Below, in pieces: positions 3 to 15,988 of a DNA stretch of 15,988 nt; positions within the stretch are counted from its first letter, which is position 1, and each line of letters opens with the position of its first letter. The translations under genes and the position numbers were made by a program. Under the pieces are notes generated by a model. It searched no databases and was not told where the DNA came from. It worked only from the letters and a program-made list of their open reading frames with translations. This stretch comes from Candidatus Hodarchaeum mangrovi (GTDB taxonomy: Archaea > Asgardarchaeota > Heimdallarchaeia > Hodarchaeales > Hodarchaeaceae), in NCBI GenBank assembly GCA_016839515.1, contig JAEOUE010000295.1, positions 1-15,988 of the forward strand, given 5' to 3'.

Positions 3-1664
3 GTAGTTACAGATAATTTTCCTGAAATATACAACGGAACAGGCGTTAAATCAGTAACAGTTAGATTGACTGTACAAGATGCTCAAGGCCCTTCTAGAAA
101 TGCTCATTTATTGACCCTTATTGAAAGCACTGATTTGTATGATGTATATTATGGAATTATAACAACTGCTACTGATCCTATTGCTTTTCCAAGAGACTAT
201 TTCTCATTTAACCAAACAATTAAATATACAATCAATGTTACAGATAATTTAGGTAACTGGCAAATTAAAGACGGGTTATCACTCCTTAATAAAGATTCAG
301 AAGGGCCTTTTATTAATCGAACAGAAATACTTTATTCCCCAGAGATGGATGGTTTATTAAGTATAGTCATTAATGCTACTGATCAATGGTCAGGAGTGAA
401 AAATGCCTCTATCCGAGTTTATTACCCATTAAATAATCAATGGTCTTCTACTTATTTAATGACAAAATCTGATCTTTTTGTAGGTTATGGATCGCAATAT
501 TACTTCATTAATGAAAGTTTCAATGTGGGTGAAATAATCACATATGAAATTATATTATTTGATAATGGGGGAAATTCTTATCGTGAAATTGCTGATATTG
601 GTGTTGAGGATAAATCAGGACCTCAATTATTATCTGGATCTAAGATTAAATACAGTGAAAATGGACTTGGAGAGTTTTCCCTTATAATTAACACTGGGGA
701 CAATGGTTCAGAAATTACTAGAGCTATTCTTCATTATTCCTATACGATTGGTACTTCTATATTAAGTAGGTCTATCAATCTCACAGAATTGGTTTCCGGA
801 GGTGGGTCAGGGGCCAATATCGAAAATTACAAGTTTCGGAAGACTTTTTCCCAGAAATTCAACATCCCACTTGATTTTACTAGATCAGGATATATAAAAT
901 TTAGTCTAGAACTCTTTGATACCGAGGGTAATTCTCGTTTATATTCGCATGTAGATCTAGAGGACAAAGAGATATTTGATGATAGTTTTACTCAGTTATT
1001 GGATTCTGTTGCGATTGATCTTCTTGGGAATCCAATTTTCTTATTTTTCCTATTCATTTTTGTTGTATCTCTTGCTTATGTTACAATTAAACGGTTACGA
1101 ACTATAAGTGGTTTTGACAAGGAAAAGGTATTAGCAGAGATGACTCGAATTAGTGATAATGAGGTTTGGGAAGAAAATGATAAAATCTCTATTGGATTAT
1201 ATGCTAATTTCTTTGACCAAATAAGAGGTCCAGTTCCAATTATTTGGCACCCCGAAAAAGTAGGGGTATCGGAAAGAGTCCGATTTGCATTAGCTGACCG
1301 ATCTTTCTCAACTTTAGGCTTTGTCTCAAAATATACTGAAACTAAGGATGCAACATTCAAATTTACTTATACAGGAGAAAATTGCACAGTATTTGGATTT
1401 GCTTTTGCTATTGTAAAAGCAGAAGCTCGTGGTGGCCAAGAGAATTTATCAATCTGTTTTATGATTCGTCCTCCCTATGGAAATCTTGAAAACCTTAATA
1501 AATTCCGAGGTGAACTGATAGAACACCTTGAAAAAATCTCTCTGTTGATAAAAAGAGATGAAGATATCAAAATAATTCAAAGAGAAATGCAGAAGACTCG
1601 TGAATTCTTTACTAGAGCTATGATCACCTTTCGAAAGAAATATGGGAGGGAATTTTTAGAGTGA
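3..1664 (+). CDS. 5'-truncated single-pass membrane protein: Ig-like repeat ectodomain, TM helix and cytoplasmic FLCN/SMCR8-like longin (uDENN) domain (receptor A)
   Basis: The frame is open from base 3 (VVTDNFPEIYNGTGVKSVTVRL), upstream of the ORF-track TTG at 66, so the gene starts before the window. Ig-repeat motifs: DSEGP, EDKSGP, TDQWSGV, TDNLGN, FDNGGN, FDTEGN. TM PIFLFFLFIFVVSLAYVTI (~1032-1088) is followed by KRLR. Cytoplasmic motifs: FFDQIRGPVPIIWHP (1209-1253) and EARGG (1422-1436). Confidence 0.8.
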   Translation, partial: VVTDNFPEIYNGTGVKSVTVRLTVQDAQGPSRNAHLLTLIESTDLYDVYYGIITTATDPIAFPRDYFSFNQTIKYTINVTDNLGNWQIKDGLSLLNKDSEGPFINRTEILYSPEMDGLLSIVINATDQWSGVKNASIRVYYPLNNQWSSTYLMTKSDLFVGYGSQYYFINESFNVGEIITYEIILFDNGGNSYREIADIGVEDKSGPQLLSGSKIKYSENGLGEFSLIINTGDNGSEITRAILHYSYTIGTSILSRSINLTELVSGGGSGANIENYKFRKTFSQKFNIPLDFTRSGYIKFSLELFDTEGNSRLYSHVDLEDKEIFDDSFTQLLDSVAIDLLGNPIFLFFLFIFVVSLAYVTIKRLRTISGFDKEKVLAEMTRISDNEVWEENDKISIGLYANFFDQIRGPVPIIWHPEKVGVSERVRFALADRSFSTLGFVSKYTETKDATFKFTYTGENCTVFGFAFAIVKAEARGGQENLSICFMIRPPYGNLENLNKFRGELIEHLEKISLLIKRDEDIKIIQREMQKTREFFTRAMITFRKKYGREFLE

Positions 1665-4600
1665 CGAATATTGGTAGAGGAATAATGACGTATAGATTTA
1701 ATGACATGAATATGGTGTTGCTTATACTTATTTTCATTTCTATTGTTCCAACTCTTAATTTACAATCAAGGACGACGCATACAATCGATTATTATCTCAA
1801 TTCTGAAAACGAATCTATCGTTGTTGATCGTTTGATGAGATCTAATTCCTCAGTTCCTGAATCTTTAGAATATGGACATTTGAAACCAATTGGATTTATC
1901 CCGACATCTCATCAATATTTTACTTCATCTAATCAGTCTACAATTTTTGAGTCCTCCAATTTTAGTGATGATGATCTTATTATTCCTCAAACCAAGATAA
2001 TGGCTCAATTTGATGTAGTTATTGACGAGATTTATCCTAAAGCTATTGAAATTAATTCATCTCAAACAGAGTATCGATTGAATTTCTCAATAGTAGATGG
2101 CCAAGGACTTGATTCAAGCATTATTATAAATTTAACCTTAAGGCGCTCAGATAATCCCCTAGAAAATTATTTAATTACTACTTGGTACAATTTCTGGTAC
2201 AAGGGAGAACCCAGTTTTGATTATTCCTTGTTTTTCACTCTTAACAATTCGATTATTTCATCTCTCTCTTTCGCTTTATATTATTTCGAAATTCACACTT
2301 TAGTTTTAACTGAAGAAAGTGTTTCATCAATTAATTTACCAGTAAAAGATCTCCAAGTTTCTATTTTAAGCTTGGTTCCAATAGAGTTTAATAACAAATT
2401 TGATTATAACCAGACATTTGAGATCCAAATTGAGGTTAAGGAGTTTAATGGGATTTCATATAATCCTGTAACTTTTCTACCAAGGCTTCTTGATTCTAAT
2501 TCAAGATTGATAAATCCCAATGTTACAATTTTATCTTCGACAGACCAAACAAGGGTGGAATTGTACTTTTTCTCCTTTATTACAAATTCTTCGGCTGAAG
2601 GGACATATACTTTTAATACTACACTTCTTCCTGATGATGCTCGCCAATTTGAAGAAGCAAATCATCAATTGTCAGTCGTTGTAACTTCAAATGATGGGAT
2701 TCAAGCATTTAATTTGGAACTAATACAAGCCAAAAGTACTGTACTATTAGTTCGATTAAAGAAAATTTATATTGAATCAGAATCTTTTGATTGGGATATA
2801 TTAACTAATAATGGAAAGGAACATAAAATTTTCAGGATAAATATTAATTCCTCATTTTTAGTGACCTATGAAATATACGAACAAGAATCAGGAATTATAG
2901 ATGACACTGCTGGAGATATAATTAGTTTTCAAGATCCGAATAAACCTAAAGATCCATTTGCTATTCTTCAGAATGTATCATCAGCAGATGGATCTGATTC
3001 AATAGATCTTACTTCCAACCGAATTTCTCTTCCTGAAGGGTATCCTTTGTTTTTATATGTAAGAGGTCACCGCACTTCACAAGAAGATGAATTATCCAAT
3101 ATTACGATCTATTGGGATTCAATTGATTATAATCTTAACTATTATGATGATAAAGGTGAATCAGGATCAAAGGGATTAGGGTTAGATATTGGAGCGACTT
3201 GGGCTTTAAATTTATCACTTATTTATGTTTCTGACTCATCTCCTGCATATAGTTCGTATATCCAATATAGATATCCTAGTGAAAGTCCTACTTGGGTTGA
3301 CTTGATTGATGGGATAGGGAATGACGAATTAGATGGTCAATTTTCACTAAATAGAACAGAAAATAATCCTATTGTTCTTTTATTGGAAATTCGAGTTGTT
3401 AATGGATCGTTAAGAAGTGTAAGAGAAACATATTTTGTTGATGCATCTTATAATACTGATTTATTTTCATTGGTTGTGACTTGGACTTATTTGAAGATAG
3501 ACCTCTCCTCTACAGAGGAAGATGGTCGATTAGGTATAGGTAAATCTGCTAACATAAACATTACAGTTAAATGGGCACATAATGAATCTTTACCCTTTAG
3601 TGGATATATAAGTGCAAGAGACTGGAAAAATTCTTTTTCCTTAAAACAAATAGTAAATGGATTTGGTATTTGGATTGGTGTTACTAATAATAATCCAGGG
3701 TTATATCAGTACCGAATCGATACAATAGTAGATGACCCATTATTTGGGGTTACCAAATTTTTTAATATATCCAACGGTGAGGATGTATCTATTAGTCTTA
3801 TTTGGGATTCTATCGAGTTTACATTTTCTAATACCTATAATAGTTCTTTAGATCCCTCCTTACAGATATGGGAAGCCTCTCTAGAGTATACTTGGAGTTT
3901 TTTTGCCAATATTAATACTAATGCTACTTTATATATTTATGGTTTTCATACTTATGATAATACTCCATTCCAAGGAGTTGCTGAATTAGCTTCAACTTCT
4001 CCTGATGGAGATATTATTGTTCTTTATTTTAATTCTAAGGGAATAGCAATTTGGACGGGTGATTATACAGAATTTAATATACCTATTGAGTTTTTCATAA
4101 ATTCAATAATTAATTCAGCCGAAAATGATTGGGAAATATACGAACCAGGAAATCCCCATTTTGTAGAAATCGTTTGGGATAGACTGGTGGTTACATTATC
4201 TGCAAATCGGGCGTATTCTCATGGTACATGGGCTGATATTTACATTAGCTATTCTTATGCTATAAGTCCTAAATCTGTAAATCCTTCAGACGTAACATAT
4301 GATTTTACCTTATATAATGGAACACTGACAAATGTTTCTCTAACTCATTTTCGTGACTTTAGTTTAAGCCCTATAGAGAGAACTTATTATCTAACAAATT
4401 TCTTTGAGGCAACTACAGGACTGTTAGGTGCAGATATTCAATATCGATGGACAGGATATGAACCAAGGCTAGGGAATCTAACTATTTATTGGATTGATGA
4501 TCGTCAATCACGAATTATTGACCGTTATATTCGAGATTTAGGAAATGGAACTATTCTCATTATAATTCATCTCACTGATAATTCAGAAGATTGGATTGGA

Positions 4601-6211
4601 ACTGGTATTCAATCCGTTTATTTACGTGATGAAAGAGAAAATGTCCTCGACCAATTTCCCACCCCAGCAGAAATAACTGAATTTTCTCCTGGAATATATC
4701 AATGTATTTTTCGGTATATTTTCAATCAATCTGATCAATCTAATGGGTTTAGATTTTCATTTAATGAAACTTTAAGATTTTCTTTAAATATAACAGAAAA
4801 TGAAATCCCTAGTTTTCCTGAAGACTTGGGTAAATCTCGTACTTATCTATCACGAGTTTTTACTGTTCAAGCCAAGTATGATTTCATTCTTCCCAAATTC
4901 ATTGACCAAGGTGGGATGATTATTAATATTACTTATCTTACAAATGGAACTGATGGGTATATTCTTGTAAAGACAATGGTTCAAGATGAATTTTGGTCTG
5001 GATTGGGAGATAATTCCGTCATGTTATTAATTACTACCTTAGATGATGATTTAGTTTTTGAAGGAGTTATGAATCCAGCACAATTAATTCAACCGAACTT
5101 AAGGAGGTCTATCCTTAAATTCCAAACACTTGTGTATTTGGATGTTCTCAAGACTTATATTTTTACGGTCGTCGCTACCGATATTTCAGGTAATAAGAAT
5201 AGCTATCAGATTGAATTAGTAGTTGAAGATCGTGTGGCTCCCCGTGTAATTGAATTTAATAGTGAAAAAACGGACGATCGGCAATTACGTGTGAACGTCA
5301 CACTTGAGGAAAATGGTCTTGGAATTGACTTTATTCGTATCAGGATTCGTGGATATAGTATTTGGTACGATTTACTACCCGTTGGAGGAAGCGGGGCTGA
5401 CGAAACAGCCCAACGTTTTATCTATTCAGGCTTAATTCCTCTTATTCTTGATCTCAATAATATTATCGGATTTAAAGTGGAATTCGATGTCTGGACCATG
5501 GATCGTTTAGGCAATCAAAAAGAATTTTTGCTAGAAAATTACCAATTTCTGCTTGAAACGATATTCCTTGAGCCTTTTGTGTTAGGTTCTCTTGTATTTC
5601 TATTAGTAATCGGCATTATAATTGGGATCAGAGTAACTTCTCGCCATGAAGGCTATGATATGCAACGAATCTTCAAGGAAGGTGAACAAATCTCAAGAGA
5701 GGATATTTTGATTCAGATGGATGAATTTGCTTTGGGAGTTACAATTAATTTCTTTGATCAAATTCAAGGTCCTGTTCCTGTTATCTGGGAGCCTCCACTT
5801 CTAGAGGATCAACAACAAGTCATGCTTGATCTTTCGGACAAATCATTCTCAACTCTTGAGTTTGTAGGCACTGATGAATATGAACGAAGTGGAACATTTG
5901 ATTTCTCAACGGGAAGTTATGAATGTACGGCTCTTGGTTATTCATTTGCAATTGAAAACCCAGAGGCTAGAGGAGGCAAAGAAAATCTCACGATCGTTTT
6001 ATTACTTCGTAGAGAATGGGGAGAAAACCTACTAGTATTTCAAGACGAGCTAGTTGAAAAACTAAGACAAATCCGTATTTTGGTTGAAAATAGGAAACCA
6101 GCGTCTGAAATCGAGAGGACATCGCGCGAATTACGTGAAATGGTTTCTCGGTTAATGATTGCATTTAATAATTTGTATTTAAAACAAGAAAAAAGTAATG
6201 AAAAAAGATAG
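1661..6211 (+). CDS. Large single-pass surface protein: signal peptide, beta-sandwich repeats, TM helix and cytoplasmic FLCN/SMCR8-like longin (uDENN) domain (receptor B)
   Basis: 1516-aa ORF. The GTG start overlaps the upstream stop (GTGA); an alternative ATG at 1685 has GAGG just upstream. N-terminal hydrophobic stretch MVLLILIFISIV and many N-x-S/T sequons. TM PFVLGSLVFLLVIGIIIGI (~5573-5629), then FFDQIQGPVPVIWEP (from 5750) and EARGG (5963-5977). The cytoplasmic domain aligns without gaps to receptor A from the juxtamembrane linker through the EARGG region. Confidence 0.82.
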   Translation: MTNIGRGIMTYRFNDMNMVLLILIFISIVPTLNLQSRTTHTIDYYLNSENESIVVDRLMRSNSSVPESLEYGHLKPIGFIPTSHQYFTSSNQSTIFESSNFSDDDLIIPQTKIMAQFDVVIDEIYPKAIEINSSQTEYRLNFSIVDGQGLDSSIIINLTLRRSDNPLENYLITTWYNFWYKGEPSFDYSLFFTLNNSIISSLSFALYYFEIHTLVLTEESVSSINLPVKDLQVSILSLVPIEFNNKFDYNQTFEIQIEVKEFNGISYNPVTFLPRLLDSNSRLINPNVTILSSTDQTRVELYFFSFITNSSAEGTYTFNTTLLPDDARQFEEANHQLSVVVTSNDGIQAFNLELIQAKSTVLLVRLKKIYIESESFDWDILTNNGKEHKIFRININSSFLVTYEIYEQESGIIDDTAGDIISFQDPNKPKDPFAILQNVSSADGSDSIDLTSNRISLPEGYPLFLYVRGHRTSQEDELSNITIYWDSIDYNLNYYDDKGESGSKGLGLDIGATWALNLSLIYVSDSSPAYSSYIQYRYPSESPTWVDLIDGIGNDELDGQFSLNRTENNPIVLLLEIRVVNGSLRSVRETYFVDASYNTDLFSLVVTWTYLKIDLSSTEEDGRLGIGKSANINITVKWAHNESLPFSGYISARDWKNSFSLKQIVNGFGIWIGVTNNNPGLYQYRIDTIVDDPLFGVTKFFNISNGEDVSISLIWDSIEFTFSNTYNSSLDPSLQIWEASLEYTWSFFANINTNATLYIYGFHTYDNTPFQGVAELASTSPDGDIIVLYFNSKGIAIWTGDYTEFNIPIEFFINSIINSAENDWEIYEPGNPHFVEIVWDRLVVTLSANRAYSHGTWADIYISYSYAISPKSVNPSDVTYDFTLYNGTLTNVSLTHFRDFSLSPIERTYYLTNFFEATTGLLGADIQYRWTGYEPRLGNLTIYWIDDRQSRIIDRYIRDLGNGTILIIIHLTDNSEDWIGTGIQSVYLRDERENVLDQFPTPAEITEFSPGIYQCIFRYIFNQSDQSNGFRFSFNETLRFSLNITENEIPSFPEDLGKSRTYLSRVFTVQAKYDFILPKFIDQGGMIINITYLTNGTDGYILVKTMVQDEFWSGLGDNSVMLLITTLDDDLVFEGVMNPAQLIQPNLRRSILKFQTLVYLDVLKTYIFTVVATDISGNKNSYQIELVVEDRVAPRVIEFNSEKTDDRQLRVNVTLEENGLGIDFIRIRIRGYSIWYDLLPVGGSGADETAQRFIYSGLIPLILDLNNIIGFKVEFDVWTMDRLGNQKEFLLENYQFLLETIFLEPFVLGSLVFLLVIGIIIGIRVTSRHEGYDMQRIFKEGEQISREDILIQMDEFALGVTINFFDQIQGPVPVIWEPPLLEDQQQVMLDLSDKSFSTLEFVGTDEYERSGTFDFSTGSYECTALGYSFAIENPEARGGKENLTIVLLLRREWGENLLVFQDELVEKLRQIRILVENRKPASEIERTSRELREMVSRLMIAFNNLYLKQEKSNEKR
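3101..4500 (+). repeat. Protein-level tandem beta-sandwich repeats in receptor B, delimited by [IV]-x-W-[DT]-like motifs
   Basis: ITIYWDSI (W at 3113), LVVTWTYL (3482), ISLIWDSI (3803), VEIVWDRL (4175), LTIYWIDD (4490). Spacings are 123, 107, 124 and 105 aa. Confidence 0.6.
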
Positions 6212-6224
6212 AGGTTGAAGAAAA

Positions 6225-9176
6225 ATGAAAAAATATGTAAGTAAAATGACCAAGATATTGTTAATTCTTTTTATTTTACAATATGCCTTAATTTATGATT
6301 TATTTCCAGATTTAAGTAAGTCTTCCTCCTCTATTTTTGCAGATCCTCTTAGATCACAAGGATTTCCTGTTTACGAGTCTAGTTCTTCTTGTTCTGACTT
6401 TCCTGATGTGATTGAAATTGATACAACAAAATCTCTTCAACAGACTACTTATGATATCTTTAATCTTACAGGAGTAAAAAATCCATCTCTAGTTCAATTT
6501 ACTGAAAACATTTGGACTGATGTCTTAGGTACTGATAGTTTAGCTCTTCAAAATAGCGAGATTTTCCAAACTGGACTGATAGTAACGAATTCATCAGTTG
6601 GAAGTCAATTAGAGGAGGAAGTCAATAATTCATTATTTGTAAGAATTGGAAATACTGGTTATGGGTTACCTGTTCCTGAGTCAGGATTCAATCCTGATTT
6701 AAATGAGAACGAAGGTTGGAGTATTTCTTCAGGTCTCTCTGCTGGTTGGAAAATACCTTTCACAATTAGTAGCGAATATGAAGTGGTTAATATAAGTTTT
6801 AATTGGCGTTTTGACGCTATAGACGGAGCTTTTGATTATGATCGTTACGAATATTCCCCAGGAGTCTTTCTCGATGAGAATCCAGATTTTCAGGAGGTAA
6901 GAGCACGTATTTCCCATATCAATCCAGTAAATTCGTTCTGGTTGGAAAATGATCGATCTCCTTCTAATCCTAATGGCACAATTTATTATCGTCGTGGGCC
7001 TGTTGTAGATGGAGATGAAGTGTGGTATCAATTTAATTACTTATTTCAGGTGTCTCCTGATGATTATACATTAGAGCTAGGGGCTTATCTTAATACGAGA
7101 GAGTTTGAACTTGAATATTTCGATGTTTGGTTTGATGAAATCTATATTCAAGGGATAGATAATCTCACTGATAATCTAGCTCCTGTACCAAAGGAGTCGG
7201 GATTGAATAGAACAGCAGATATTACTCAATATGAATTTTTTGCTACTTTTAGAGAAGGATTATGGGAAACACCAGTAAAGAATGTCACAGTTTTTTACAA
7301 CACATCATCTGGTCTGAATACTACCGCCTATAATTCGACTTTAAGTCTTGTTCAGACCTCCTATATAGATAATGCAGGTTATAATAACTCCTATTGGAAT
7401 TTTTCAACTATTTTTCAATTCAATGATTCTATTAGTTATTATTATCTTACATACGATTATCAAGGAAATAATTATGTAAGTCAGAATTATTACTCGGTTA
7501 TTAATGATACAGTTGCTCCAAAGATTACAAGCTCACTTAGTATTACAAATCCCTCATTTATTCGGCAATTAGGGAATGGAAGTTCATTAATCTGTGTCAC
7601 AGTCTATGATTGGGGAAATAATACTGAAGAGGTTAAACTCTGGTATCGGATTGGCACAGGAGACCTTCAGTCGCAGTTATTCCTATTTAATGGTACTCAT
7701 TATATTACAAAAGTCACCTTCGGATTTCTCCAAACAATCTATTTTAATATAACTTTGAAAGATGGTGCTGGTAATTCTAACACCTATTCCGGGTACTCCA
7801 CGAAGAACACTATTGATTCCATCGCACCCACTATAATTTCTAATAGCTTAGTGATATATCCCAGCAAAATTACAGAGAACAAAAACCATGTAAATATATC
7901 TGCTTTTGATCCGTTTGGAGAAATAAGAAGAGTGTTTGTCGAATTTTGGGATCTTCAGGGAGTTCTAAAATTCAATGTAACATTAACTTCCCGTGGAGTA
8001 TTAAATCAGTATTTCTTAAGTCAACCATTAGATTTACCCTATAATCAGTCGTATATTGCTCGTGCTGTAGTTCGTGATCAAAGTGGCTTGAATGCTACTG
8101 CAAATATCACCTATACAGCATTGGATAGCGTGGTACCCCAGTTAGATATTCAAGAAAGTGAATATTTCGAACCTGGAAAGCTAAAGGTGTTCCTTATATC
8201 AAGTGATACTGGTAGTGGCTTAAAATCTTTAGAATATGCTATTTACACACCTACTGGTTGGTCTTCAAGTAAAAGCATTGAATTAACAGGAGCTCGTTAT
8301 TCATTTACCATTCATTCGGAGTTTATAGGGAATGAACGAATCGAGATTCGAATTAGTGCTATTGATAATGCAGGTAATGAAAAAATACTTACGAAAGTTT
8401 ATACAACCAGTTTATTCTTTTTGACCCCCTTTGGATTATTGTTTACTGATGGTTTCATAACCTTTGTGTTTGTTTTTGGCTTTACCATGGTTAAAATTAT
8501 TCAAGCCCGACGAGTTCGTGTTGTACGCCGTAAACGGTTTGATGTAGCCCTCAGTCGGAGTGAACGCTTAGCCTATCTCGGAGAAGAAGCTATCTTTGGA
8601 TTTATTGCTGCTTATGGTCAGAGAGAAGGGAGTTCTAGTGTTTTACTTTGGGAACCCCGTTTAATAGGTGGTTTCTATCAATATCTGAAGGAACTTGTAG
8701 AGAAAGCACACTCACGAGTTGATTTTATCATGCGAATGAAACCAAAGGAAATGGTATCGTATATTGATTTTAATATTGAGGATGTAGCTTGTACTGCTAT
8801 TCTTTTTGCCTATCCTGCTCCTACGTTACCACAACAATGGTTATCAACAATTAGTTTAGACCAAGTGCCTTCTGGACCTGGACAGGGGATTTTACTTATA
8901 ATGTTACTAATGAGAGAACAATGGAACACTGTATCTCAAAGTTTTCAAGAGGAAATTACTGAAGGAGTTCTAGATGTTAAAAATCGGATTCTTGCAGGAG
9001 AAACTAAAGAATCAATACTTGAACAAGCTAGAAACTTTCGTAGATTTATTTCGGAGACCATTGAAGTCCTTGACGAGATAGAAGTTGAATCAGAGGATTT
9101 TGCTGATTCGATTATGGATGGTTTTGAGAATACGTTATTAGAGCAGGATTCGGAGAAGAAAGAAGATAGAAGATGA
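6225..9176 (+). CDS. Single-pass surface protein: signal peptide, CBM-like jelly-roll, Ig-like repeats, TM helix, divergent longin-like domain and acidic tail (receptor C)
   Basis: 983-aa ORF with GAGGT upstream of the ATG and a signal-like N-terminus MKKYVSKMTKILLILFILQYALI. Repeat motifs: DNLAP, DTVAP, DSIAP, DSVVP and DYQGN, DGAGN, DQSGL, DNAGN. TM at ~8412-8500 is followed by RRVRVVRRKR. The tail shares WEP, DF...CTA and LLMREQW with receptor B (WEP, DF...CTA, LLLRREW). Confidence 0.75.
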   Translation: MKKYVSKMTKILLILFILQYALIYDLFPDLSKSSSSIFADPLRSQGFPVYESSSSCSDFPDVIEIDTTKSLQQTTYDIFNLTGVKNPSLVQFTENIWTDVLGTDSLALQNSEIFQTGLIVTNSSVGSQLEEEVNNSLFVRIGNTGYGLPVPESGFNPDLNENEGWSISSGLSAGWKIPFTISSEYEVVNISFNWRFDAIDGAFDYDRYEYSPGVFLDENPDFQEVRARISHINPVNSFWLENDRSPSNPNGTIYYRRGPVVDGDEVWYQFNYLFQVSPDDYTLELGAYLNTREFELEYFDVWFDEIYIQGIDNLTDNLAPVPKESGLNRTADITQYEFFATFREGLWETPVKNVTVFYNTSSGLNTTAYNSTLSLVQTSYIDNAGYNNSYWNFSTIFQFNDSISYYYLTYDYQGNNYVSQNYYSVINDTVAPKITSSLSITNPSFIRQLGNGSSLICVTVYDWGNNTEEVKLWYRIGTGDLQSQLFLFNGTHYITKVTFGFLQTIYFNITLKDGAGNSNTYSGYSTKNTIDSIAPTIISNSLVIYPSKITENKNHVNISAFDPFGEIRRVFVEFWDLQGVLKFNVTLTSRGVLNQYFLSQPLDLPYNQSYIARAVVRDQSGLNATANITYTALDSVVPQLDIQESEYFEPGKLKVFLISSDTGSGLKSLEYAIYTPTGWSSSKSIELTGARYSFTIHSEFIGNERIEIRISAIDNAGNEKILTKVYTTSLFFLTPFGLLFTDGFITFVFVFGFTMVKIIQARRVRVVRRKRFDVALSRSERLAYLGEEAIFGFIAAYGQREGSSSVLLWEPRLIGGFYQYLKELVEKAHSRVDFIMRMKPKEMVSYIDFNIEDVACTAILFAYPAPTLPQQWLSTISLDQVPSGPGQGILLIMLLMREQWNTVSQSFQEEITEGVLDVKNRILAGETKESILEQARNFRRFISETIEVLDEIEVESEDFADSIMDGFENTLLEQDSEKKEDRR

Positions 9177-9202
9177 TTTTATTTCTTCTTTTCTATTTAT
9201 TA
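9177..9202 (+). terminator. T-rich tract after receptor C, possible archaeal oligo-T terminator
   Basis: ttttatttcttcttttctatttatt lies immediately after the TGA. The background is AT-rich, so this is weak. Confidence 0.3.
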
Positions 9203-9227
9203 ATTCATTAGTGGATCACTTAACAAG

Positions 9228-9263
9228 TATAAAAATGCGTTTGATCAAGCAAGAAGAGAGGTA
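9228..9263 (+). promoter_or_regulatory. Candidate TATA box and Shine-Dalgarno for the 78-aa gene
   Basis: TATAAAAA at 9228-9235, about 35 nt before the ATG at 9270, and GAGGT ending at 9263. Confidence 0.35.
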
Positions 9264-9533: not shown

Positions 9534-9977
9534 CTACATAATGTCTAAATGGATACGTTGCGCTGTTCCTCGTGTTCCTTTGCGTGAACAGGTGACACTA
9601 AAAAGTGGAATATTGAAATCCACGGCTAATAAAGTAGCATCGTCAAGATTTTTCGCTACAAGAATGTCCAGTATCGCTCCATCGGTATGACGAAATATTC
9701 TTAAATATACATCCTCAATTTGATAAGACCCTGTCTGATCCCATCCCTTTTCTACGAGTAGTAAAGTTGGCCACAATTCTCCTTTTTTAAACCATTCCTT
9801 ACGCTTTTCTACTGGAGTTTTTATATCTTTATCGGCAAGATTGGGAAAGAAATAGCGTTTATCATCCTCAATGGTATCTTCTAGCATTCTTATATGGGGA
9901 TTTTGTCGCGCTATCCAACCAAAAGTTCTAAACTGCAAGATAATCCAGTCCGTAATTCTACATTCAAGTTTAGGCAA
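9534..9977 (-). CDS. Hypothetical soluble protein
   Basis: 147-aa ORF with a TTG start and protein-like composition that fills the gap between neighbours. The frame stays open upstream to 10076 with no in-frame ATG, so the start is uncertain. No family recognised. Confidence 0.65.
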   Translation of the reverse strand: MPKLECRITDWIILQFRTFGWIARQNPHIRMLEDTIEDDKRYFFPNLADKDIKTPVEKRKEWFKKGELWPTLLLVEKGWDQTGSYQIEDVYLRIFRHTDGAILDILVAKNLDDATLLAVDFNIPLFSVTCSRKGTRGTAQRIHLDIM

Positions 9978-10122: not shown

Positions 10123-10641
10123 TCACATTTCTGGATTTAGAGCTGTTTCAGAGGGTTCGTGAAGATCTTTTCTTTTCTGAGGTATTTCTGAGATAATTTT
10201 TACAATATTACGACCCCATACCATGAAAAAAGCTAGTTCGAGTAAGAACATTATTCCTTGCAGGATTATGCTCTCAGAGAAGACCTCAAGTATATATGTA
10301 AGGGCAAAAAGTCCAAAAACATAAACCAAATCAGTAGAAGCTAATTTTCCAGGTGTAAAGGTAATTTCATTTGAGATCCATCTCCAAATTTCCCAATAAG
10401 CAATAATTCCTCCTAATAGGGATCCAAGGACTGCACCGACATAGATTAATGCTGGCCAAATCACAGGTAAGCTAGAAAAACTTGGTTCTTGTCTTGCTAA
10501 GTAATCAAATATACCAATTATGAAGAATACTATTATAAAACTCGAAATACATGTAAAAATAATTGCCAATATAGGACTTATTGGAAGGGAATTTTTCTGG
10601 GGATTTTTTTCCTTTGGAGAGTCAGATTTATCTAAAGACAT
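10123..10641 (-). CDS. Hypothetical membrane protein, about 4 TM helices
   Basis: Four hydrophobic segments. I moved the start from 10695 to the ATG at 10641 (MSLDKSD, 172 aa) because it has GGTGA about 8 nt upstream and avoids overlapping lysS. Probably co-transcribed with lysS (17-bp gap). Confidence 0.75.
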   Translation of the reverse strand: MSLDKSDSPKEKNPQKNSLPISPILAIIFTCISSFIIVFFIIGIFDYLARQEPSFSSLPVIWPALIYVGAVLGSLLGGIIAYWEIWRWISNEITFTPGKLASTDLVYVFGLFALTYILEVFSESIILQGIMFLLELAFFMVWGRNIVKIISEIPQKRKDLHEPSETALNPEM

Positions 10642-10658
10642 TGGGATTTCACCAAATA

Positions 10659-12314
10659 CTACTTTTTTACCGTTTGCAATCGATTTATAACCCATTCACG
10701 ATCAAGAGCAACAATAAATGGGGCAAATCGTGGGCCTTGGGGAGTACCAAGGAAGATTTGATATAGTGCTTGGAAAAAAAGGTTCATTTTCTTTTTGCTT
10801 AATCCAGTTTCTTCGCGTAGAGAAATCATACAGTTCTTAATTTCTTCTTCATTCCAAGGTATTGTCTCAAGTTTTTCAGCCATCTGAAGAATTATTTTCT
10901 GGATTTCATTATCTAGACCTATAATTACTTCATTTGGAATATCTTTCGGGATATTGATTCTTAAATAGGTTGGAGCATATTGAGAATTAACCCATGATCG
11001 TGTATGATTTAATCTTTCTTGAATATGTTCTATAACATCTTTTGAAGGGTTATTTACAAGCATTCCAGTTCCCTGTAGTTTATTGATAGCGATTTCTAAC
11101 CCAGAATTGTCTGATGGTATTAATTGGGTCAATATTAATGCATGGGAATAATCTAACTGAAATCCACGATATGGTGGTACTTGATTATAAAAAACAATCT
11201 CATAACTACGCTTAATAGCAGCTAGTTCCGCATTATCATCAAATGGCTCTAAATCGAAATATATTCGCTGTGCACGATCGTATTCTGCTACATAATTAGG
11301 TACTTTATCTAAACCCAGTATTATTCGGCGTTTTGGCGGTGTTTTTAGATATAAATATTTGAGCACTTCTGGTTCTGTATATTTTAACCAGGTTGTGGGA
11401 GTAAAACCTATAAATCCTGAGCTTGTCATATCGCCAAAGTCTTTTTTATCTTCTGAATAGCCCACCCATTCGTTCCAAAAGCCAAAAGGCCCACGTCGCT
11501 TGAGAACAGTTTCTAAAACCTCTATGCAGCTGTCTCGTGATCCACCTGGTGTAGCATGATCTTTTCCATATGGTTCAAAATGAACATTGAGGGTATACCA
11601 GATTGCTAGCCATTCTAGTCTCCATGTAAGTTTTCCTAGACTAATATCAGACCAGTCTTCTGTATTACATTCTTCGCAATGATACTTGACCTTGTAGGTT
11701 TTAAGATCGACATCAAGTGCTTTTGTTGTTCCAATTCGGTTACAACGAGTACATAAAGGATTAATAGGTATCCAATCTTCGGGAAAGGGGTTTTCTTGCC
11801 GATATTTGTTTAATATTTTTCTAACCTGATTTTTCTTTTTAATAAGCGAGATAACCGTTTTCTTCATATCTTCTCGTTGATACAATTCATGTGTTCTAAT
11901 AATTTGGATATCTTTTCCGAATTTTGGCATGGGAATTCCGAATTCTTTCCAAAAAAAGTCCACCCAAGACTTTTTTGATTCTGATGGATCTGGAACATCA
12001 ATAAGTCGCCAATTAATATATTCCTTCGCTTTTTCAGGATCTTTAAAGGCATTAAGCTGTGCTTCTTTTCCTTTCCATGGATCTGAAGTATAAAGAATTA
12101 AATAATGAGTTGCTTTATAACCACGTGCCTGAAGTTCAGTTGTCACAGCATTTGTTAAAACGATTTCACCCCTTAGACGACCGACGTGTTGTTTCCCTGA
12201 GATAGATATACCACAATTGCAATTAAATTTGGTGACATCAGGCCAATTATTAATTAAATCTGTTGTTAGTTGATCTATCCAATGTTGGGAATATTCTTTT
12301 GGACTTTCGGTCAT
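10659..12314 (-). CDS. lysS: Lysine--tRNA ligase, class I (LysRS1)
   Basis: N-terminal HWIDQL; HIGH-like GISISGKQHVGRL; CTRC and CEEC zinc knuckles; GKLTWRLEW; FEPYGKDH..PGGS; KMSKS-like DMTSS; C-terminal FQALYQIFLG..QGPR anticodon-binding domain. Confidence 0.96.
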   Translation of the reverse strand: MTESPKEYSQHWIDQLTTDLINNWPDVTKFNCNCGISISGKQHVGRLRGEIVLTNAVTTELQARGYKATHYLILYTSDPWKGKEAQLNAFKDPEKAKEYINWRLIDVPDPSESKKSWVDFFWKEFGIPMPKFGKDIQIIRTHELYQREDMKKTVISLIKKKNQVRKILNKYRQENPFPEDWIPINPLCTRCNRIGTTKALDVDLKTYKVKYHCEECNTEDWSDISLGKLTWRLEWLAIWYTLNVHFEPYGKDHATPGGSRDSCIEVLETVLKRRGPFGFWNEWVGYSEDKKDFGDMTSSGFIGFTPTTWLKYTEPEVLKYLYLKTPPKRRIILGLDKVPNYVAEYDRAQRIYFDLEPFDDNAELAAIKRSYEIVFYNQVPPYRGFQLDYSHALILTQLIPSDNSGLEIAINKLQGTGMLVNNPSKDVIEHIQERLNHTRSWVNSQYAPTYLRINIPKDIPNEVIIGLDNEIQKIILQMAEKLETIPWNEEEIKNCMISLREETGLSKKKMNLFFQALYQIFLGTPQGPRFAPFIVALDREWVINRLQTVKK

Positions 12315-12544: not shown

Positions 12545-13771
12545 ATGAAGGCATTAATTCTGGCAGGGGGTAGTGGAAAGGAAATGTTACCAATTTCAAA
12601 GTACTGTCCCAAGACTTTTTTGTCTTTACATGGCAAATTTCTTGTGGAATATGTGATTGATGGTCTAAGGGAAGCTGGGTTTGAAGAATTCGTGGTTGTA
12701 GTGGGGCATCTAGGAGAAAAAGTCGATATATTATTGGAAAAATATCAAGGAAAGAATATTATTCTTGATATTGTCAATCAAGAGGAAAAAAAGGGTATTG
12801 AAGGGGCAATCTTAGCTGGAAGCGACCATTTTTCCAAAACTGAACCATTTATATTGGCTTATGGGGATATCATTGCTCCTTCTAAATTTTATCAACATTT
12901 AATGAATTCCTACATCAATACAGCTGCTGATGGTGCAATTGCAGTCACCTTAGTAGGCAAATCCTTTGAATTCGGAATAGCTAGTCTTGATGACAGAGGT
13001 TTTATTACCAAGATTCTTCCTGAGACTTCAACGAATGGTGATGAGGCGAATTATATTTTTGCTGGAGCTTCCATTCTTCCAGGTGAATTCTTTCATGTTC
13101 TACAAGACGAAAAGAAATTAACTTCAGCTTTAGGACGATTACTCAAAGAGCAGCGGCGTATTTGTGCTTCTGTTTGGTTGAATGAATGGATAGATGTTGG
13201 GTATGGATGGGATCTTCTAGAAGCAAATAAAGACGTTTTCAAAAACATTGAATACTCACGTATTCATAAATCAGCTAAGATTTCTCCTTCTGCACATATT
13301 TCAGGATTAATATTCATTGAAAAGAATGTTACAATTGATCACAATGCCGAGATTGTTGGACCCTGTTTTATTGGAGAAAATGCATATATTGGTACCAATA
13401 GTTTAATAAGAAGTTTTTCTTGTATTGAAAAGAACTGTACAATAGGATTCTCAGTCGAGGTAAAAAATTCCGTTATTCAACCAAATGTAAAGATTGGTCG
13501 TTTATCTTATATTGGTGATAGTGTAATCGGAGAAGGAGCTAACATTGGAGCTGGAGTTACTACAATAAACTACATAAAAGGTCTTTCTCCCGATATACAC
13601 CCAATGATTATCAAAGGACGCGAGTATGACAAACTAGGGGCCATAATAGGTCCTAGAGTAGATCTTGGATCGAATACTGTTATTCTTCCCACTATTAAAA
13701 TTAATCATGACGAAATTATCCCTCCAGGTTCTGTAGTCAAATCCGATAAAATGAAAAAAAGAGAAGATTAG
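12545..13771 (+). CDS. GlmU-like sugar-phosphate nucleotidyltransferase with left-handed beta-helix domain; catalytic motifs appear degenerate
   Basis: MKALILAGGSG...P...PK, AYGD and WIDVG..WDLLEAN; hexapeptide repeats (IVGPCFIGENAYIG, LSYIGDSVIGEGANIGAG, KLGAIIG) as in archaeal bifunctional GlmU. Confidence 0.88.
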   Translation: MKALILAGGSGKEMLPISKYCPKTFLSLHGKFLVEYVIDGLREAGFEEFVVVVGHLGEKVDILLEKYQGKNIILDIVNQEEKKGIEGAILAGSDHFSKTEPFILAYGDIIAPSKFYQHLMNSYINTAADGAIAVTLVGKSFEFGIASLDDRGFITKILPETSTNGDEANYIFAGASILPGEFFHVLQDEKKLTSALGRLLKEQRRICASVWLNEWIDVGYGWDLLEANKDVFKNIEYSRIHKSAKISPSAHISGLIFIEKNVTIDHNAEIVGPCFIGENAYIGTNSLIRSFSCIEKNCTIGFSVEVKNSVIQPNVKIGRLSYIGDSVIGEGANIGAGVTTINYIKGLSPDIHPMIIKGREYDKLGAIIGPRVDLGSNTVILPTIKINHDEIIPPGSVVKSDKMKKRED

Positions 13772-14466
13772 AATTCCAGACGTTTATCTGGGACATAGGA
13801 AAGAATTCTTCTGATCTGATCTTCTTTTTTGTTTATTCGGAAAACATTTGAGATTCGATAAATACGATCGCCTGTTTCTGGTTTAATAAAGAGATCACCA
13901 CTTAAGAAAAGCATTTTCTCAAAGATATCTGGGTTGGCTTTTTCGATGTGAGCATGTTGTGCGTTTCCAAATCGTTCTTCGTCTCCTAGAATTCCTCTGT
14001 GATGATAAATTTCTGTAGGGGAAATCAACCAATAGTCTATGCGACTATAGATATACATTATAATTAAATGAGCAGCTATTAGCAAAAAGAAGAATAAATA
14101 AAATTCTTGAGATACTGTGATATTAGGCCAGCTAAGACCAAACTTCAATTCAGGAAATTGAGTTATTAAGAGAATATAAACCAATACAAAGATTATAACA
14201 CCAAAAGCTATAAGAGCTGTCTTTCCCACTCCGAAATCAAAAGCTACTATGATAAAATTAAATGCAAATACTGCAAAAAAGAACGTCCCAAGAATTACTT
14301 TTGTGTCTGTACCAAAAAGGTCTGGTAAAAAAGCTTGGATAATGAACGAAAGTAAGGCAATTATCATACTAGGATAGAAAAAGAGCGTTTCAGGATAAGA
14401 ACGAACAATAGTATATTCCTTTTCTGGTTTTTTTATTTCTTGTGTTTTAATCGCATTCATTGACAT
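13768..14466 (-). CDS. Membrane protein (about 4 TM) with C-terminal bacterial PH-like (bPH_2/DUF304-like) domain
   Basis: Four hydrophobic helices, then YWLISPTEIYHHRGILG...IFEKMLFLSGDLFI...RISNV...IRRIL, which fits the bPH_2 pattern. GGAG upstream of the start. 4-bp convergent overlap with the GlmU-like gene. Confidence 0.7.
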   Translation of the reverse strand: MSMNAIKTQEIKKPEKEYTIVRSYPETLFFYPSMIIALLSFIIQAFLPDLFGTDTKVILGTFFFAVFAFNFIIVAFDFGVGKTALIAFGVIIFVLVYILLITQFPELKFGLSWPNITVSQEFYLFFFLLIAAHLIIMYIYSRIDYWLISPTEIYHHRGILGDEERFGNAQHAHIEKANPDIFEKMLFLSGDLFIKPETGDRIYRISNVFRINKKEDQIRRILSYVPDKRLEF

Positions 14467-14584
14467 TTTTTTCTTGACTCCAAAGAGATATATGTATTTA
14501 AATGATCAACTAAATTATATATATTTTTGTATATTCTTGAATTAAAAAAGGTTCTTTCTAAAATAATCAGACCTAACTTGTTCC

Positions 14585-15604
14585 TCAGAAGACATCTTTC
14601 AAGCCATTTGTAGTAATAGCAAATACAACTTCATTTTCAGGTAACATTGGACTATCGATAATTCGTGCAATACGACGTTCCCCTTTGGATTTTCGAAGGT
14701 AGATTCTAGTATGAGTTGAATGAGCTAAGATATGTCCTCCCACAGGTGTAGTAGGATCTCCAAAAAAAGTATCAGGAGCAGTTTGTACCTGATTAGTCAA
14801 GATAATGGCAAGATTATATATTTCAGCAAGTCTTAAAAGAGAATGAAGATGCTGATTTAGCTTTTGTTGGCGTGATGCTAAGGTTTCTCGTCCCACGTAT
14901 TCTGCACGAAAATGTGTGATTAATGAGTCAATTATCAATAATTTTACATTTCTAAGAGGGGCTTCTCTCATGATTCGTTCTGTTAAAATCATTTGATGGT
15001 CTGAGTTATATGCTCTGCCATGTAGTATGTGTTTTAAGATTGATTTAATGTTTAGATCATCTGAATATTGATTTGCCATCGAAACTATTCGCTCTGGACG
15101 AAAAGAGCCTTCTGTATCAATATATATACATGTAATAGCTTCTTTTCCATCCTTAGTGATACCCCCCCTTTCACATGGAAGATGGCTAGTTACACACAAC
15201 TGGTGCGCAATCTGTGTTTTACCCGTTCCATATTCCCCATAAACTTCTGTAACACTTCCAGTTTCAATTCCTCCTCCTAAAAGATCATCTAGGGCATCAA
15301 CACCAGTAGAAAGACGCATCATACTTCTTCTTGATTCAAGAACTTTATCTGCAGATTTAAAATCAATACCAAGAGATTTTTGAGCCATCTCAATCAGTTT
15401 GAGTGCCATATTCTCTTGGAAGTTACCACAAGATGTTAATTCTCGGATACTTGCACTAGCTACTGCTTCTATAGTTGTAAATCCTCCGTCAAAGAGCTTT
15501 TTAGAAAGTAAGGGATTAATATTTGATAGGAGAGGAAGACGATCGGGATCACTATATGATAGATCTTTTTCTAATTGAGAAGGAATAATATCGGGTTTGT
15601 GCAA
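14585..15604 (-). CDS. radA: DNA repair and recombination protein RadA (or a close paralog)
   Basis: N-terminal HhH-like domain; polymerization motif FKSA; LSTG...LDDLLGGGIETG; Walker A GEYGTGKT; YIDTEGSFRPER; Walker B LLIIDS; FRAEYVGRETLASRQQKL; TNQV; GGHILAH; DSP. TTG start. Confidence 0.9.
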   Translation of the reverse strand: MHKPDIIPSQLEKDLSYSDPDRLPLLSNINPLLSKKLFDGGFTTIEAVASASIRELTSCGNFQENMALKLIEMAQKSLGIDFKSADKVLESRRSMMRLSTGVDALDDLLGGGIETGSVTEVYGEYGTGKTQIAHQLCVTSHLPCERGGITKDGKEAITCIYIDTEGSFRPERIVSMANQYSDDLNIKSILKHILHGRAYNSDHQMILTERIMREAPLRNVKLLIIDSLITHFRAEYVGRETLASRQQKLNQHLHSLLRLAEIYNLAIILTNQVQTAPDTFFGDPTTPVGGHILAHSTHTRIYLRKSKGERRIARIIDSPMLPENEVVFAITTNGLKDVF

Positions 15605-15988
15605 TCGAAGATCTTTCCAAGAGTTCTTTAATAATAACTCGAATATCCAATAATAAAGACCTGTTCAAGACAGTTCATTATTAAACTTATAAGATATTAG
15701 ATTTTGAATTACTATTTCATTAGGGAACAGTATTACAACAAGGATCTAAAATTAGGAAGAGAGAATAAACAGGTATCACACTACCCTATAATGCCTTTTT
15801 TAGAATAAAAATAGTACCTGATTTTATAAAAATGAATATAGTCGTTTATTACTCTAAGTTAGGTTAAATGGGAATGACTCAGCCTATGTGTAATTTCACT
15901 TTCAGAGATCTCTTCTATTACAATAAAATTGTTTTAAACGGATTTTTAGTTCTTAATTTTTTAATTTTGGGAAAAAAATTAACTATTA

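Follow-up and report, generated by a model that had tools for sequence, protein, structure and literature searches.

Longin-type tails on giant surface proteins of Candidatus Hodarchaeum mangrovi: a candidate link between the cell membrane and Rag-like GTPases

Why should a giant surface protein of an archaeon end, inside the cell, in a domain of the kind with which eukaryotes regulate small GTPases? The question is raised by contig JAEOUE010000295.1 of Candidatus Hodarchaeum mangrovi (assembly GCA_016839515.1; genome of 4.0 Mb in 348 contigs, 91% complete), the entire 15,988 bp of which form the window analysed here, and by its first three genes, A, B and C, whose tails had been likened, in an earlier reading of the sequence alone (hereafter the sequence-only reading), to the longin domains of FLCN and SMCR8. 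In eukaryotes FLCN-FNIP, GATOR1 and C9orf72-SMCR8 form, together with the Rag GTPases, the core of lysosomal nutrient sensing, and Asgard homologues of the longins and of the Rag proteins have each been noted before, as separate soluble proteins without a known connection. We find support for the three tails as longin domains of FLCN/NPRL2/SMCR8 type, and related tails repeatedly adjoin genes of Rag/Gtr-family GTPases. From motifs, gene neighbourhood and analogy we propose, with slightly better than even confidence, that tails A and B would act at the cell membrane as a Rag/Gtr-directed GTPase-activating protein (GAP), with tail C as a non-catalytic partner.

Three membrane proteins and the fold of their tails

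Gene A (3-1664), gene B (1661-6211; 1,516 amino acids, aa) and gene C (6225-9176; 983 aa) are open reading frames (ORFs) on the forward strand, as are all features of the window given below unless marked (-). Their ORF coordinates bear out the initial description of three adjacent, co-oriented genes, with a 4-bp overlap (GTGA) between A and B and a 13-bp gap between B and C; A is open at its 5' end, where the contig starts. Hydropathy windows place one strongly hydrophobic helix near the C-terminus of each protein, at aa 345-362 of A (nucleotides, nt, 1035-1088), aa 1306-1323 of B (nt 5576-5629) and aa 744-756 of C (nt 8454-8492), followed by basic residues (KRLR in A, RVTSRH in B, KIIQARRVRVVRRKR in C). 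N-x-S/T sites lie almost entirely on the N-terminal side of the helix (9/11 in A, 33/34 in B, 24/24 in C). Because of the helix, the basic residues behind it and this distribution of sites, the three fit type-I single-pass membrane proteins with cytoplasmic tails, and the single helix, basic residues and C-terminal tail of the sequence-only reading are upheld, with tails that measure ~185-227 aa and that hydropathy and charge put in the cytoplasm. Genes B and C moreover open with N-terminal hydrophobic segments (nt 1712-1756, a putative signal or anchor, and nt 6255-6296, respectively, both by hydropathy); the window does not reach the N-terminus of A.

The tails are homologous to one another. 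When compared with tail B (nt 5648-6208; 187 aa), tail A (nt 1098-1661) reaches E 2e-37 and the more divergent tail C (8493-9173; 227 aa) E 3.5e-6. The AF2 model of tail B, built from 43 aligned sequences (pLDDT 94.7, pTM 0.89), begins with two juxtamembrane helices and continues as a predicted longin domain, with elements in the order strand-strand-helix-strand-strand-strand-helix-helix and a five-stranded sheet. Its top Foldseek match in the PDB is a Lokiarchaeota longin (8yqg; E 2.4e-5, TM-score 0.60/0.69, root mean square deviation (rmsd) 3.8 A over 168 columns, 13-14% identity), followed by 8dhb_J, from the active FLCN GAP complex, and by 6ulg_N/L and 6nzd_H, from FLCN-FNIP2-Rag-Ragulator complexes; further matches include 9h4q_T and 8adl_S of SEAC, chains of GATOR1, and DENND1A.

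Sequence profiles point the same way. Among the tails no Pfam family recurs other than Folliculin (PF11704), which is matched by 7/43 members and always below threshold (best E 3.6e-4), and the source genome also encodes a soluble 422-aa protein (C238:16177-17445(-)) that passes the PF11704 cut-off (28 bits against 23.3). When a profile of 25 tails was aligned to one of 13 sequences of this protein's longin region, hhalign returned a probability of 93.2% (E 3e-7, 129 columns), placing FDQxxGPVP over FDEExGP and ARGG over ARGK; the value was 1.2% when a single FLCN-like sequence stood in for the 13-sequence alignment. Direct sequence searches of the PDB gave no match for tail B alone and coiled-coil noise only for two tail profiles, and likewise no match for the FLCN-like protein and designed helical proteins only for its profile. 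Taken together, the model, the Foldseek ranking and the hhalign result support, at the level of modelled structure and profiles, the longin fold of FLCN/SMCR8 type that had been suggested at the outset.

LOV and PAS chains also appear among the Foldseek matches of tail B, and, by E-value, LOV proteins come first for the weaker AF2 model of tail C (pLDDT 72.7, element order the same as in tail B), with poor superposition. The tail might thus be a ligand-sensing domain of PAS/LOV type instead of a longin, a reading that we reject as highly improbable because of the TM-scores: those of PAS/LOV chains on tail B are 0.28-0.41 / 0.17-0.43, mostly with an rmsd of 10-30 A, far from the fit of 8yqg, and the best TM-scores of tail C, too, belong to longins (8yqg, 0.45/0.64; the longin domain of Lst4, which we take to be the yeast FNIP, 0.35/0.52). 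Furthermore, the sequence profiles indicate Folliculin and not PAS.

The GP motif, a candidate arginine finger and a degenerate third tail

GAP-type longins are marked by a GP motif in the loop or at the beginning of strand 2 and by an arginine finger, which stands beside the GP motif in all three complexes; the two occur together in 15 Asgard longins and are absent from non-GAP longins (PMC12290439). Tail A carries FFDQIRGPVP (1209-1238; FFDQIRGPVPIIWHP from nt 1209) at the turn between strands 1 and 2, and ARGG at 1425-1436. Tail B has FFDQIQGPVP (5750-5779; FFDQIQGPVPVIWEP from nt 5750), with G41-P42 of the tail at the start of strand 2 (41-48), and ARGG at 5966-5977, the R108 of which falls in the loop that joins strand 4 to strand 5; both ARGG motifs hold a candidate arginine finger. 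The F-F-D-Q-I-x-G-P-V-P motif announced for two of the tails is therefore present in A and B as claimed, only not at the tail start, since it sits ~35 residues past the helix. Reference residues for the finger were FLCN Arg164 and SMCR8 Arg147; the NPRL2 counterpart is presumably Arg78. In the hhalign alignment R108 coincides with the ARG of the soluble 422-aa protein. None of G41, P42, R108, G109 and G110 varies among 25 aligned tails, and across 152 representative domains GP is found in 131 of the 143 that cover it, the arginine in 140 of 146, and both in 125.

Tail C departs from this pattern. It matches a hidden Markov model of the tails (E 1.4e-8), and in the alignment GSSS (8607-8639) replaces GP, SGPGQG (8868-8888) replaces ARGG, and a 13-aa insert (8814-8852) is present; past the last longin helix lies a conserved acidic C-terminal motif, D-(D/S)-I-M-x-D-F-E-x-x-F-L (9105-9140), which looks like a short binding motif. 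Among 10 aligned C tails (56-59% identity) GP and the arginine are lost in all, and GSSS, SGPGQG, the insert and the acidic motif are kept. Consequently, C is a maintained degenerate member and not a decaying gene, and its tail is a degenerate and probably non-catalytic longin. The description of the cluster as a trio of longin tails needs qualifying in this respect: A and B carry both GP and the arginine, and the third tail has neither. FNIP2 and NPRL3, which are non-catalytic partners, also lack the GP motif (PMC12290439). A predicted complex of tails B and C scored 0.00 against a mark of 0.32, in a run without controls that has no bearing on binding either way.

Six short relatives in the representative set (P0109, P0115, P0127, P0138, P0143, P0151; 184-588 aa) likewise have neither the arginine nor GP. 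Five of them show no transmembrane-like segment upstream of the domain and P0115 is too short to assess; judged by sequence, they may be soluble non-catalytic partners.

Distribution, Rag/Gtr neighbours and the proposed function

How widely is this arrangement kept? A search of 1.84 billion representative proteins with the 187-aa B tail (E<=0.001) returned 154 representatives, in host proteins of up to 5,809 aa in this set, with the domain at the very C-terminus and a transmembrane-like segment just upstream in 120 of the 134 that could be assessed; 5 of the 14 members that lack this segment belong to the six arginine-less proteins, all 6 of which are short. A scan of one genome per species, seeded with a 6-sequence tail alignment, found 58 related loci, all in archaeal metagenome-assembled genomes and 57 of them with Asgard labels (Hod-, Heimdall-, Prometh-, Thor- and Hermod-archaeota), in keeping with the Asgard occurrence of longin/DENN-like domains noted in the sequence-only reading. 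Across 400 genomes of the phylum, 80 match the tail at E<=1e-5, including 20/21 in the genus of the window (several copies each) and 22/31 and 9/12 in two other families of the class, and elsewhere in the phylum the matches are weak only. The family is restricted to Asgard archaea. The source genome carries at least eight tail-bearing genes, distributed over five loci, and in ten clusters whose public names were looked up the proteins are always called 'hypothetical protein'.

Conservation of the trio, which the sequence-only reading had proposed surveying, extends to 13 loci orthologous to B: A, B and C stand in order in 9, three loci begin inside B at a contig end, and one, in a relative with a complete chromosome, holds B and C with other genes where A would be (part of the C tail is masked in the stored copy of this relative). 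B tails are 70-77% identical between genomes and whole B proteins 39-47%, which means that the cytoplasmic end is under much stricter selection. The full A, B and C proteins gave 0 Pfam families at E<=1, and their ectodomains thus have no match. That of B (~1,270 aa) has 33 N-x-S/T sites and that of C 24 as well as three ~103-aa repeats, and repeats also precede the helix of A. The claim that the three share an ectodomain is weakly supported, holding for the membrane-proximal stretches, which align (blastp E 0.001-0.01) and carry a D-x-x-(A/G/V)-P motif at a spacing of 103-104 aa, and failing for the remainder. Gene A, as present in the window, encodes no more than the C-terminal 553 aa of a giant surface protein. 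Its full-length orthologues measure 8,821 and 8,857 aa in two relatives, and the longest reaches 10,431 aa; an 8,856-aa orthologue has essentially no Pfam domains, its sole match being a sub-threshold Big_13.

The evidence that ties the tails to a particular class of GTPase comes from gene order. Eight strong Gtr1/RagA-family genes are present in the source genome. At C112, a Rag-like GTPase gene (316 aa; 6893-7843) lies 87 bp past a 2,138-aa tail-bearing gene (390-6806). Next come a 125-aa gene and the gene of an 893-aa HEAT/TPR protein, and then another tail-bearing gene in convergent orientation, so that C112:6893-10903 is enclosed by two giant tail-bearing genes; at C28, two Rag-like genes (751 aa, 12572-14827; 303 aa, 14986-15897) stand just beyond a 3,096-aa tail-bearing gene. 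In total 3/8 Rag/Gtr genes of this genome lie <=3 kb from a tail-bearing gene, against a mean of 0.049 under random placement (0/20,000 trials reached 3), and, as two of the three share one locus, the count amounts to two loci. Beyond the source genome, 9/58 loci hold 14 Gtr-type genes, mostly 25-77 bp from the tail gene, and a reading of coordinates in five congeners with good assemblies places at least 7 of their 37 Gtr matches directly next to a tail gene. Three loci picked, on their tail matches alone, from two further families of the class gave a consistent picture. All three have tail genes of 1,440-1,619 aa (3, 2 and 1 in tandem) that carry GP and (A/M)RGG, and in 3/3 the tail genes are succeeded within ~40-105 bp by a Gtr1_RagA gene; a second, convergent Gtr1_RagA is present in 2/3. 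Their ectodomains show no BLAST similarity to B, the helix and tail alone being shared.

Two side observations concern these clusters. The only protein-atlas leads for the 125-aa gene beside the Rag gene at C112 are HEAT-like. At C186:1-8795 a pair of Rag-like GTPase genes adjoins a tubulin/FtsZ-family gene (445 aa) and a 1,143-aa unknown, together with a 310-aa protein that weakly matches the tail (E 0.005).

A mechanism may be sketched from these elements. A very large, fast-evolving ectodomain rich in glycosylation sites would lie outside the cell, with one helix crossing the membrane and an FLCN/NPRL2/SMCR8-type longin held within ~30 residues of its inner face. Tails A and B would dock a Rag/Gtr-family GTPase, probably a pair, at the cell membrane, where their conserved arginine might stimulate GTP hydrolysis as FLCN Arg164, the catalytic finger for RagC (PMC9473554), does on that GTPase. 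Tail C would most likely serve as a non-catalytic longin partner of A or B, by analogy with FNIP, NPRL3 and C9orf72, in which case the formation of a complete GAP unit inside the cell would depend on whether the ectodomains associate. Pointers to such a heterodimer are the presence of motif-bearing and motif-less tails in one gene cluster and the deposition of 8yqg as a dimer. The architecture, fold, motifs and gene linkage of the tail family are matters of observation; action on Rag-like GTPases, a catalytic role of the arginine and pairing of C with A or B are what we infer, and the GAP side of the proposal draws on gene neighbourhood and motifs.

Several points weigh against this proposal. 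The trio itself has no GTPase gene at any of its 13 orthologous loci (8-kb flanks): a ThiN-type gene (a regulator) lies upstream of A in both genomes examined, and on the contig of one relative the nearest Gtr genes are ~28 kb away. A GTPase partner of the trio would accordingly have to be encoded elsewhere in the genome, and the link to small GTPases in the sequence-only reading gains support from paralogues and class-level relatives, which adjoin Gtr1/RagA genes; beside the trio there are none. Among the non-trio loci, 36/45 have no Gtr gene in their flanks, many of them on short contigs, and the linked loci are partly orthologous copies related by descent, and therefore come to roughly three or four independent arrangements and not to dozens. 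At 14.1 and 15.2 bits, the tails stay below the PF11704 cut-off of 23.3, which the soluble 422-aa protein exceeds. They have no DENN domain, as the proteins end a median of 1.5 residues past the longin domain and the model has just two terminal helices. The putative equivalence of R108, the candidate finger, with FLCN Arg164 is read from motif and profile alignments, and the proposal as a whole derives from genes, alignments and models.

Ragulator (LAMTOR1-5) is the membrane anchor of the Rag GTPases, and it provides, at the lysosome, one model for the main alternative, in which the longin tail is a membrane tether or docking platform for a Rag/Gtr dimer or another small GTPase, without catalysis; the SRX longin of SRP receptor alpha with SR-beta is another. 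The tail could equally be an exchange factor, the commoner role of longins, and longin and roadblock dimers are indeed general GTPase platforms and for the most part guanine nucleotide exchange factors (PMC10933270). Rag/Gtr gene linkage fits this alternative as well as it fits a GAP, and tail C and six relatives without a transmembrane helix lack the arginine and are still conserved. However, GP and the arginine, which non-GAP longins do not have (PMC12290439), are both kept in most representatives (125/152) and both invariant among the 25 aligned tails, and a plain tether needs neither. We thus consider a tether or exchange factor unlikely.

A further possibility is that the tail is unrelated to GTPases and serves in assembly, in sorting or in anchoring to the cytoskeleton, as a module by which giant proteins of adhesin or S-layer kind would be dimerised or clustered from inside. 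The absence of a GTPase neighbour at the trio would agree with this, as would the huge, repeat-rich, variable and adhesin-like ectodomains, the deposition of the 8yqg longin as a dimer and the tubulin/FtsZ-like gene in one Gtr cluster, but the conserved GP and arginine motifs would then be left unexplained, as would the tight adjacency to Rag/Gtr genes that three families of the class repeatedly show. We judge such a module less probable again than a tether; both it and a PAS-like sensor fit the data less well than does a Rag/Gtr-directed GAP.

The GAP proposal may be carried one step further, to a plasma-membrane FLCN/GATOR-Rag axis in the Heimdall group, in which contact or a ligand outside the cell would join A or B tails with C tails, and the resulting FLCN-FNIP-like GAP unit would control the nucleotide state of a Rag-like GTPase pair inside. 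This extension is speculative, and we incline to doubt it. If it were true, control of Rag proteins by longin GAPs would have started as outside-in surface signalling, before any lysosome.

The remainder of the window and its surroundings can be described briefly. A T-rich stretch directly 3' of the gene C stop codon (9177-9230), noted by reading the sequence, is likely the putative end of an A-B-C transcription unit. Behind the trio lie two small family-less genes, a class-I lysyl-tRNA synthetase, a nucleotidyl-transferase/hexapeptide protein, an unknown gene and RadA, a gene content that identifies the source as an archaeon; the labels of its nearest relatives point to the Heimdall/Hodarchaeales group. 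Genes downstream of the trio recur in 10/13 orthologous loci. The first of the small genes (9534-9977 (-)), on the opposite strand directly after the trio, is listed at 147 aa and measures 134-137 aa in relatives; it is kept in 10/13 orthologous loci with 57-75% identity, and its product has no Pfam family and uninformative protein-atlas matches. Two further conserved genes have no clear family, at 10123-10695 (-), with a sub-threshold TMEM128 match (E 0.0015), and at 13768-14466 (-), with 73-82% identity in relatives. On the 5' side of gene A, one relative (G002:C87) has an extra 3,049-aa protein (L070:2625-11774 (-)) full of Y_Y_Y, Big_3_3 and Big_7 immunoglobulin-like repeats, without a tail match in the genome search, and another (G001:C52) has an IS605 OrfB / Cas12f1-like TNB (TnpB-type) gene (L069:4022-5326 (-)) two genes 5' of the A orthologue. 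The stretch is present in 20 DNA sequencing rows from 7 studies, and the search of sequencing runs listed no RNA datasets containing it. An assembly artefact or non-coding ORFs are ruled out by conserved synteny and by the many independent datasets with the stretch.

Known systems and what the family may mean

Soluble FLCN/SMCR8-type longin proteins are known from Asgard archaea and have been proposed as GAPs on Rag/Gtr or Arf-related GTPases (PMC12290439, Traffic 2025). The tails described here share with them the longin type, the aligned GP and ARG arginine, the phylum and the GAP proposal; those proteins are cytosolic, however, whereas the tails make up the final ~185 aa of membrane proteins that range from 1,000 to >10,000 aa, and the word 'transmembrane' has 0 occurrences in the text of PMC12290439. 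The soluble 422-aa PF11704-positive protein of the source genome, which, unlike the tails, lies above the family cut-off, is single-copy in 20/21 genomes of the genus and 2/2 of a sister family. It stands in a run of minus-strand genes (C238:10907-18316) with a 460-aa unknown, a zinc-ribbon protein and a Roadblock/LC7-like protein, and an Arf-family GTPase (319 aa) lies ~4 kb away.

The eukaryotic longin GAP complexes, FLCN-FNIP (acting on RagC/D), GATOR1 with NPRL2-NPRL3 (RagA/B) and C9orf72-SMCR8 (Arf/Rab), have in common with the tail family the longin fold, the GP motif, an arginine within the longin and a tie to Rag-family GTPases, which here exists at the level of gene linkage in paralogues and relatives. 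The juxtaposition of motif-bearing (A, B) and motif-less (C) members also recalls FLCN-FNIP and NPRL2-NPRL3. In contrast to these complexes, the tails are followed by neither a DENN nor any other C-terminal domain, are fused to an ectodomain and bring their own transmembrane anchor at the cell membrane in place of recruitment to the lysosome, and their dimerisation and catalysis are suggested by sequence and analogy. The best structural match, the Lokiarchaeota Roadblock-Longin 8yqg, is similarly archaeal and deposited as a dimer, yet it is part of a soluble roadblock-longin fusion of 13-14% identity; a literature search found no published paper on it. NPRL2-like longins fused to two-component domains have also been described in Asgard archaea (bioRxiv 10.1101/2020.10.19.343400) and resemble the present proteins in joining a GAP-type longin to prokaryotic-style sensory or signalling architecture, although a giant ectodomain with a single transmembrane helix is not mentioned in the available part of that preprint. 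Ragulator, finally, is a membrane platform of the roadblock/longin superfamily for Rag dimers (PMC10933270), and differs in using a lipidated subunit and roadblock domains with no arginine finger, as opposed to a transmembrane helix and a GAP-type longin.

The longin type itself is hence already known in Asgard archaea (PMC12290439), and it is the fusion to a helix and ectodomain and the Rag linkage that we did not find in print. A full-text literature search returned no GAP-type longin joined through a transmembrane helix to a large ectodomain, though the supplements of PMC12290439 and of the 2020 preprint may list such proteins, and no linkage of such fusions to Rag gene pairs; within that search, the view that no protein of such architecture has been characterised is supported.

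The origin of the longin GAP/Rag machinery is an open question on which the tail family bears in several ways. In this family a GAP-type longin sits at the cell membrane, as the inner end of huge surface proteins. Tails of catalytic type and degenerate tails occur together in a single cluster, and coupling to Rag-like GTPase pairs recurs at the gene level across three families of the class. The family thereby supplies concrete protein pairs with which to ask if longins of Asgard archaea act as GAPs. It also suggests that surface sensing, or the control of surface proteins, may have been the setting in which the module arose, and not an organelle.

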